A stretch of DNA of 64,000 bases from an uncultured Bacilli bacterium. GTDB taxonomy: Bacteria > Bacillota_I > Bacilli_A > RF39 > UBA660. The DNA is taken from the NCBI GenBank assembly GCA_947632325.1, contig CANROU010000001.1, positions 7,997-71,996 of the forward strand, read 5' to 3'. The notes below the pieces were generated by a model. That model saw nothing but the letters and a program-made list of their open reading frames with translations, had not been told where the DNA came from and did not search any database. How positions within the stretch are numbered: the stretch's first letter is position 1; each line of letters opens with the position of its first letter. Below are positions 8,761 through 8,830 of the stretch, piece after piece. A program made the position numbers and the translations under genes.

Positions 8761-8830
8761 ATTATATAATAAGGACCCCCCCCCATGTCAACTTTTTGTT
8801 ACTTTTTTCGACATATTAAAAAGAGCTATT
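8761..8830 (-). promoter_or_regulatory. promoter-like element copy A (TTGACA - G9 tract - TATA-rich -10) upstream of the esxA/T7SS core operon
   Basis: Coding-strand sequence is AAAAAGTTGACAT-G9-TCCTTATTATATAAT. It shares ~90 bp with the elements at 13775-13860 and 17180-17245. Confidence 0.45.

Follow-up and report, generated by a model that had tools for sequence, protein, structure and literature searches.

The esxA gene of an uncultured low-GC member of the Bacilli opens a string of genes that runs to the type VII secretion genes essC and esaB, and it is preceded by an element whose sequence supports its reading as a near-consensus sigma-A promoter with a G tract in the spacer. We hypothesize, with a probability of roughly two in three, that this element is a sigma-A-type promoter-spacer contingency locus of the Neisseria porA type, built around a slippage-prone tract of nine G residues (G9). 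Sigma-70 and sigma-A promoters work best when their hexamers stand 17 +/- 1 nt apart, and runs of at least nine G's are intrinsically unstable through homopolymer slippage. Replication slippage that adds or removes a G would alter both the distance and the rotational register between the hexamers, and promoter strength would thereby change stepwise. At the esxA promoter, G7 and G8 (spacers of 17 and 18 nt) are predicted to be strong states and the present G9 (19 nt) to be weak or OFF, such that the loss of one or two G's would turn the promoter up. From the sequence we infer both an effect of tract length on expression and co-transcription as far as essC. At a larger scale, and tentatively, at slightly less than even odds, we picture a clade of uncultured low-GC Bacilli (nearest relatives gut-derived) with a minimal T7SSb consisting of EssC and an EsaB-like protein, in which the secretion operon and each toxin cassette would sit behind their own poly-G promoters, giving a stochastic mix of "armed", "immune only" and "silent" states with the machinery mostly OFF or low (19-20 nt spacers).

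The esxA promoter and its paralogous copies

The window (the whole 64 kb stretch of DNA that was analysed; feature coordinates are collected in Table 1) reads AAAAAGTTGACAT-G9-TCCTTATTATATAAT on the minus strand of 8761-8830, and a direct re-reading bore out both the letters and the coordinates quoted in a preliminary description of this DNA. In 5' to 3' order the element consists of TTGACA, T, G9, TCCTTATTA and TATAAT; both hexamers are perfect, and the tract lies between them in a spacer of 19 nt (8767-8785). Alternative -10 hexamers 16-18 nt from the -35 were considered in the window and in the related contig L041, and were rejected because all of them fail the A2/T6 rule. Given the 19 nt spacer and the lack of an acceptable -10 at 16-18 nt, the present state of the esxA promoter is predicted to be weak, not ON. 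The -10 ends 63 nt upstream of the esxA start codon, close to the roughly 60 nt first estimated. This start is ATG 8697, which follows a leader of about 50 nt and is preceded by the RBS GGAGGAGG at 8704-8711; the first in-frame ATG, at 8724, is not taken as the start. Transcription would begin about 7 nt past the -10, near 8754-8757, and would cover esxA and esx2.

Table 1. Positions of the promoter elements, hairpins and genes discussed in the text, with the promoters of related lineages
Feature	Position	Strand	Remarks
EsaB/YukD-like gene, 84 aa	571-825	minus	last of the string; PF08817 E = 0.0019, below cutoff
essC, 1531 aa	829-5424	minus	TIGR03928, 1036 bits vs cutoff 778; PF01580
DUF4176 gene	5444-5782	minus	Pfam 6.8e-29
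Toxin-like protein gene (first large protein), 590 aa	5787-7559	minus	N-terminal domain common to the two upstream large proteins
WXG100-LysM fusion gene (LysM/WXG), 152 aa	7576-8034	minus	LysM 3.8e-17, WXG100 2.7e-08
Conserved intercistronic hairpin	8052-8089	minus	perfect 17 bp stem; between esx2 and the LysM/WXG gene
Second WXG100 gene (esx2), 96 aa	8099-8389	minus	PF06013 1.6e-14
esxA, WXG100, 97 aa	8404-8697	minus	PF06013 1.3e-09; TIGR03930 44.9 vs cutoff 44.85
Second TATAAT box, esxA promoter	8755-8750	minus	11 nt 3' of the first box, AAAAT between
-10 hexamer TATAAT, first box	8766-8761	minus	read from sequence
G9 tract, esxA promoter	8784-8776	minus	single T between -35 and tract
-35 hexamer TTGACA	8791-8786	minus	read from sequence
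A-rich upstream module	8792-8841	minus	includes direct repeat AAATAG-N4-AAATAG and GAAAAAAGTAACAAAAAG
Intrinsic-terminator-like hairpin, then UUUUU	8857-8821	minus	30 nt before the -35
Second large protein gene, 1230 aa	10069-13761		toxin-like
Second TATAAT box, second promoter	13776-13781		
Second promoter, TTGACA-A-G10-TTATTA-TATAAT	13786-13814	minus	spacer 17 nt; before the 1230 aa toxin-like gene
G10 run, second promoter	13798-13807	minus	
Third large protein gene, 780 aa	14823-17165		toxin-like
Third promoter, TTGACA-A-G9-TTATTA-TATAAT	17190-17217	minus	spacer 16 nt; before the 780 aa toxin-like gene
G9 run, third promoter	17202-17210	minus	
esxA promoter, 80% EsxA lineage (L035-L039, L046)			TTGACA-AACTGCTA-G(n)-TATAAT
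Second TATAAT box in L035	3150-3155		
esxA promoter, 76% EsxA lineage (L041)			TTGACA-T-G9-TATTTTATTG-TATAAT; spacer 20 nt
Second TATAAT box in L041	3332-3337		
esxA promoter, 87% EsxA lineage (L033/L034)			without tract

At nine residues the tract passes the length of about 8 nt from which a run can slip, and the composition of the window, 29% GC, would not lead one to expect it. The pattern GGGGGGGG has seven overlapping matches in the 64 kb against 0.26 expected, a number that none of 100 shuffled sequences reached. These seven matches amount to three runs (G9, G10 and G9), the sole G runs of at least 8 in the window, all on the minus strand and all inside TTGACA...TATAAT with perfect hexamers; the preliminary description was right to count the esxA element as one of three G-tract promoter copies. 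The spacers are 19 nt at esxA and 17 and 16 nt at the two paralogs, whose core promoters are identical apart from G10 versus G9 and are the only sites matching all 12 positions in a consensus promoter scan of 18 kb; the esxA copy escaped that scan for the sole reason that its hexamers stand 19 nt apart. The paralogy extends upstream: the esxA module at 8776-8841 is 91% identical over 66 nt to the second promoter (13799-13864), and it is 92.5% identical over 40 nt to the third (17201-17240). A shared upstream module had been described as 90 bp in common with the promoter of the second large protein gene; the module is real, but it extends over only 66 nt. By the spacing rule, the second toxin operon would at present be in a strong state (17 nt) and the third in a fairly strong one (16 nt), and the two paralogous copies would set the two upstream toxin operons independently, giving combinatorial ON and low states.

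Upstream of the esxA promoter, the hairpin at 8857-8821 folds at -18.8 kcal/mol (z = -4.28), and none of 200 shuffles folds equally well. It probably terminates the preceding toxin operon and insulates the esxA promoter, the first promoter past the terminator of the upstream operon, from read-through. Upstream of the terminator lie about 150 nt of comparatively GC-rich non-coding DNA (8860-9009) that match no Rfam family, and a Rfam search over 7500-9500 as a whole gave no family above threshold; contigs from three samples (L028, L029 and L032) end at 8940-8955 for no evident reason.

Two further motifs accompany these promoters. A second TATAAT stands 10-11 nt 3' of the first in almost every G-tract promoter; among the promoter types seen, only the third window promoter has it in degenerate form (TGTGAT). 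This box may act as a sigma-dependent pause or serve as a back-up -10. The direct repeat AAATAG-N4-AAATAG occurs at 8822-8840 and 13845-13863, about 35-50 nt upstream of the -35 of the esxA and second promoters, and could be an activator site or a mere constituent of the duplicated module. At esxA it doubles as the 3' half of the upstream terminator hairpin.

Elsewhere in the cluster, the 590 aa toxin-like gene of this 29% GC genome has a G7 run (6825-6831) within its reading frame, a possible slippage site of the frameshift type; no other strain covers it. Compared with window positions 10948-17234, contig L020 (ERZ27249080 NODE_695, 4324-7206) has a promoter of the third type (G9, GGTGTGTGAT) that leads straight into the body of the 1230 aa gene, with 3.4 kb missing between them. 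Recombination between the 451 nt repeats, which comprise promoter and N-terminus, may have deleted a toxin module here, or the assembly may have collapsed.

Tract length among strains and related lineages

The nearest EssC relatives from species-level genomes (n = 9) show 47-49% identity and come from uncultured gut "Bacilli" MAGs. A scan of one genome per species for the exact promoter pattern gave no match, and the same scan of JGI metagenomes gave four chance matches, all without G tracts. Among the nine species-level relatives only L009, a distant MAG with an EssC 48% identical, has a G run of at least 7. At 6522-6554 of L009, TTGACA-9 nt-G12-TAGAAT precedes a gene for a predicted membrane protein of 421 aa with no family match; as an orthologous esxA promoter this candidate was rejected, since it drives an unrelated protein of unknown family. 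Promoters with poly-G in the spacer may be more widespread among these Bacilli.

Only three closer lineages were found in a protein collection, with EssC 77%, 76% and 69% and EsxA 76%, 87% and 80% identical, respectively. All G runs of at least 7 in the roughly 250 kb of related loci sit in a -35/-10 spacer. The esxA promoter carries a tract in three of the four related lineages. In L041, of the 76% EsxA lineage, promoter and leader are homologous to those of the window (82% over 109 nt), and three further contigs of this lineage begin two G's into the tract. The tract adjoins the -35 in the window and in L041 and adjoins the -10 in L035; its retention at differing positions in the spacer argues for selection on having a tract. 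In the 80% EsxA lineage, five sequencing runs of one study (L035-L039) have tracts of G12, G12, G10, G9 and G11, corresponding to spacers of 20, 20, 18, 17 and 19 nt, while their flanks differ by 0-1 substitution over about 1-8.8 kb. A 97.6% identical strain from another study (L046) has G10 together with point changes in the flank (AAATGCTA), and on the L035 and L046 contigs the tract is the only G or C run of at least 6. Tract length in this lineage thus changes far faster than point mutations accumulate, and together with the retention of the tract in three of four lineages and its shifting position this constitutes the signature of a contingency locus.

The preliminary description had suggested that G-length variants be sought. 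They occur at the orthologous promoter of the sister lineage (G9-G12) and at the second promoter of the window species (G9 and G10), but the esxA copy of the window is G9 in all five samples that cover it (the window, L001, L002, L030 and L031). The window, L001, L030 and L031 are 100% identical, bar a one-base A5/A4 indel in L001, and L002 is 97.2% identical; the four near-identical samples represent the same strain or cohort, so that only two independent strains are sampled, both G9. At the second promoter, the window and two other samples have G10 and ERZ27249559 (L017) has G9 with no mismatch over 1090 nt. All the tract lengths given here were read from low-coverage short-read assemblies (about 2-4x where stated), in which homopolymer errors could yield some +/-1 differences. 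The third promoter is G9 in four of four samples.

This constancy raises the alternative that G9 in the window species is a static feature (what is left of a once slippery tract, a spacer or structural element, or the binding site of a factor) of a promoter that is constitutive or protein-regulated at 19 nt. Invariance of the esxA tract in all assemblies of the window species, including the 97.2% identical strain, would fit such a feature, as would the G9 of L041 despite its different downstream spacer and the G9 of the third promoter in every sample. The sampling behind this invariance is tiny (two independent strains), however, and near-clonal contigs carry anything from 9 to 12 G's in the orthologous tract, samples with identical flanks differ by one G at the second promoter, and G runs of nine or more are intrinsically unstable; a 19 nt spacer lacking any alternative -10 at 16-18 nt would also be a poor constitutive design. 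We consider a static tract improbable.

An artefactual origin of the poly-G runs (two-colour poly-G artefacts or homopolymer miscalls) was likewise weighed, as coverage is low and contigs L018, L023, L031, L040, L042 and L043 end in or near tracts. This explanation is effectively refuted: tracts with unique sequence on both sides were assembled independently in at least four studies and by two assemblers, and L018 and L023 end at G6, exactly 31 nt past the last base that distinguishes two paralogous promoters, as explained by a repeat boundary at k = 31. For the same reason, the contig ends inside tracts were rejected as a sign of heterogeneity within samples; the remaining ends within or near tracts are uninformative at 2-4x coverage.

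Returning to the contingency-locus reading, most consensus states at the esxA promoters have spacers of 18-20 nt, not 17, which means that a simple "17 = ON" rule may be incomplete. The excess of these longer spacers could mean that the operon is usually OFF or low in vivo, that the optimum is shifted for a G-rich spacer, or that another factor compensates.

The gene string and the reach of the promoter

The string from esxA to the EsaB-like gene has gaps of 14, 52, 16, 4, 19 and 3 nt by ORF ends, in agreement with the maximum of 52 bp first given; the start of the LysM/WXG gene, however, is more likely ATG 8034, behind GGAGG, in which case the gap between esx2 and this gene is 64 nt. Next after the EsaB-like gene stands ftsY, and since it has its own promoter the string is taken to end at 571. 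The gene order from esxA to esaB is exactly kept in L035/L046 and in L040. Near 8394, in the esxA-esx2 gap and the RBS region of the second WXG100 gene, the window has A5 and L001 has A4; this is the sole difference between the two in 3.7 kb and may be a low-coverage error.

Pfam and NCBIfam searches upheld the labels previously given to the WXG100 (three genes), LysM, DUF4176 and EssC proteins, but the match behind EsaB is weak (E = 0.0019). EssC is of the Firmicutes type, and the three WXG100 genes have PF06013 matches above cutoff, as expected of a T7SSb. Positions 571-17217 of the window encode EssC, the EsaB-like protein, three WXG100 genes and three DUF4176 genes. Switching of the "whole T7SS core" had been envisaged; EssC and the EsaB-like protein do lie in the string, but Pfam and NCBIfam scans of the cluster ORFs recognised no EssB, EsaA or EssA. 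Related loci (L035, L040 and L046) likewise have no EssB, EsaA or EssA nearby and retain this minimal set flanked by housekeeping genes; the neighbours in L035 and L046 are ldh on one side and, on the other, an alcohol dehydrogenase gene with a terminator after it. The cluster may represent a T7SSb in reduced form; alternatively, genes elsewhere in the genome may encode the core components. The remainder of the window encodes chromosomal housekeeping functions (SecA, ArgRS, a class A PBP, DnaB, a MurA-like enzyme and a release factor), and PcsB and FtsEX are encoded upstream of the cluster.

The three large proteins had been labelled LXG in the preliminary description, a label that the profile searches did not support: searches of the full proteins and of their N-terminal 250 aa gave no LXG (PF04740) match in Pfam or NCBIfam, and a PDB sequence search of the proteins gave none either. 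A profile of six N-termini returned nine weak matches in the PDB, none of them LXG-named, and a homolog search with the toxin N-terminus returned nothing. The proteins have in common an N-terminal domain of about 150 aa, 61-70% identical between the first protein and the other two and near-identical between the second and third over roughly the first 150 aa, and their C-termini diverge; the ortholog in L033 ends in an ADP-ribosyl exotoxin domain (ADPrib_exo_Tox). In this architecture they look like polymorphic T7SS toxins, and the common domain is probably an undescribed or very divergent T7SS-targeting domain.

How far the esxA promoter reaches depends on the hairpin between esx2 and the LysM/WXG gene, which folds at -20.6 kcal/mol (z = -8.5) and is kept in four lineages, where 5 of its 18 pairs show compensatory changes. 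Directly ahead of the next RBS, TATAAT-TATAAT (TATAATTATAAT) stands in the 3' arm, and the 5' arm has a weak -35-like GACA; the hairpin could be a leaky terminator or mRNA stabiliser, or a palindromic operator with an internal promoter. Because the tail past the stem (AUAAUUUGG) is a poor U-tract, we read it as a leaky terminator or 3' stabiliser. A leaky hairpin would yield more WXG100 mRNA than machinery mRNA and leave essC still dependent on the esxA promoter, with read-through probably reaching the LysM/WXG gene, the toxin-like gene, the DUF4176 gene, essC and esaB. Control of the whole operon down to essC-esaB by the esxA promoter is accordingly put forward as plausible.

Alternatively, the tract would switch only esxA and esx2, the hairpin being either an efficient terminator or an operator that overlaps an internal promoter (ACGACA-16-TATAAT, then the second TATAAT) and that promoter driving LysM/WXG through essC/esaB independently. 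The strength and conservation of the hairpin with its five compensatory pairs are what such a boundary would look like; a promoter-like match at 10 of 12 positions is embedded in it both in the window (8080-8053) and in L035 (3794-3823), and in S. aureus the WXG100 gene esxA offers a precedent for a unit with its own terminator. Matches of this quality occur at chance frequency in AT-rich DNA, however, and the embedded -35 is weak, the -10-like sequence is poorly kept in L040 and L033, and a start from either TATAAT leaves a leader of at most 12 nt. The poor U-tract likewise speaks against efficient termination, and no terminator-like site was flagged by a scan of the coding strand from 8697 to 571. 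We regard a switch confined to esxA and esx2 as rather unlikely, and hold an independent promoter for essC to be similarly doubtful; the consensus scan found 112 promoter-like sites, close to the 103.6 expected from shuffled sequence, a frequency at which it is no argument against internal promoters.

Relation to known systems

T7SSb systems and their toxins are seen as regulated weapons between bacteria, with known inputs from two-component systems, phage or membrane stress and quorum signals. With a slippage promoter, the machinery and the individual toxin cassettes of a gut commensal lineage would in addition switch between ON and low states in a heritable, stochastic manner (bet-hedging), which could explain differences in T7SS activity from cell to cell and from strain to strain, and tract length would serve as a marker readable directly from metagenomic reads. 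If true, this would be the first promoter-level contingency-locus control of T7SSb-mediated antagonism, and it would bring to uncultured low-GC Bacilli a kind of phase variation, by poly-G tracts in promoter spacers, that is best known from Gram-negative pathogens and mycoplasmas.

In its layout the string resembles the esxA unit of S. aureus, where a WXG100 gene comes first and a stem-loop precedes the machinery genes, with a high ratio of substrate to machinery. Unlike the window, S. aureus is not known to have a promoter repeat tract; it orders the genes differently, and it has the full core (esaA, essA and essB).

The promoter-spacer mechanism is already well known, and we found no report of such a tract controlling a T7SSb operon or toxin cassettes: a literature search for promoter phase variation of T7SSb found only work on a coding tract in Group B Streptococcus (GBS) and on M. 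tuberculosis ESX-1. In the T7SSb of Group B Streptococcus, slip-strand regulation through a G tract in the essC coding sequence has been hypothesised, its reversibility not having been demonstrated (PMC9900821). That system and the window have in common a T7SSb with a poly-G tract proposed to alter expression of the machinery, but the streptococcal tract acts by coding frameshift (truncated EssC) and not by promoter spacing. In M. tuberculosis ESX-1, homopolymer indels in the espR 5'UTR and the espACD upstream region tune secretion (PMC11898584, PMC10334774). There too, regulatory homopolymers tune type VII secretion and its substrates, and several tracts allow combinatorial tuning; unlike the window, M. 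tuberculosis has a T7SSa and belongs to the Actinobacteria, and its tracts act through the 5'UTR of a regulator (post-transcriptionally) or upstream of espACD, and not within the promoter spacer of an esxA/essC operon.

Similar spacer-repeat designs are known from opc and from the vlp genes of Mycoplasma hyorhinis (poly-A). The closest parallel in design is Neisseria meningitidis porA, in which the length of a poly-G tract in the -10/-35 spacer sets the transcript level, and TA repeats form a similar spacer design in Haemophilus hifA/B (PMC3899988). As in porA, the repeat of the window lies inside the -35/-10 spacer, slippage by one unit would shift the spacing, and the tract is far longer than composition predicts. 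The window element differs from porA in its host, an uncultured low-GC member of the Bacilli; in its proposed target, a T7SSb operon and toxin cassettes in place of a surface antigen; in its three paralogous copies within one locus; and in its observed states, which lie mostly above the 17 nt optimum.
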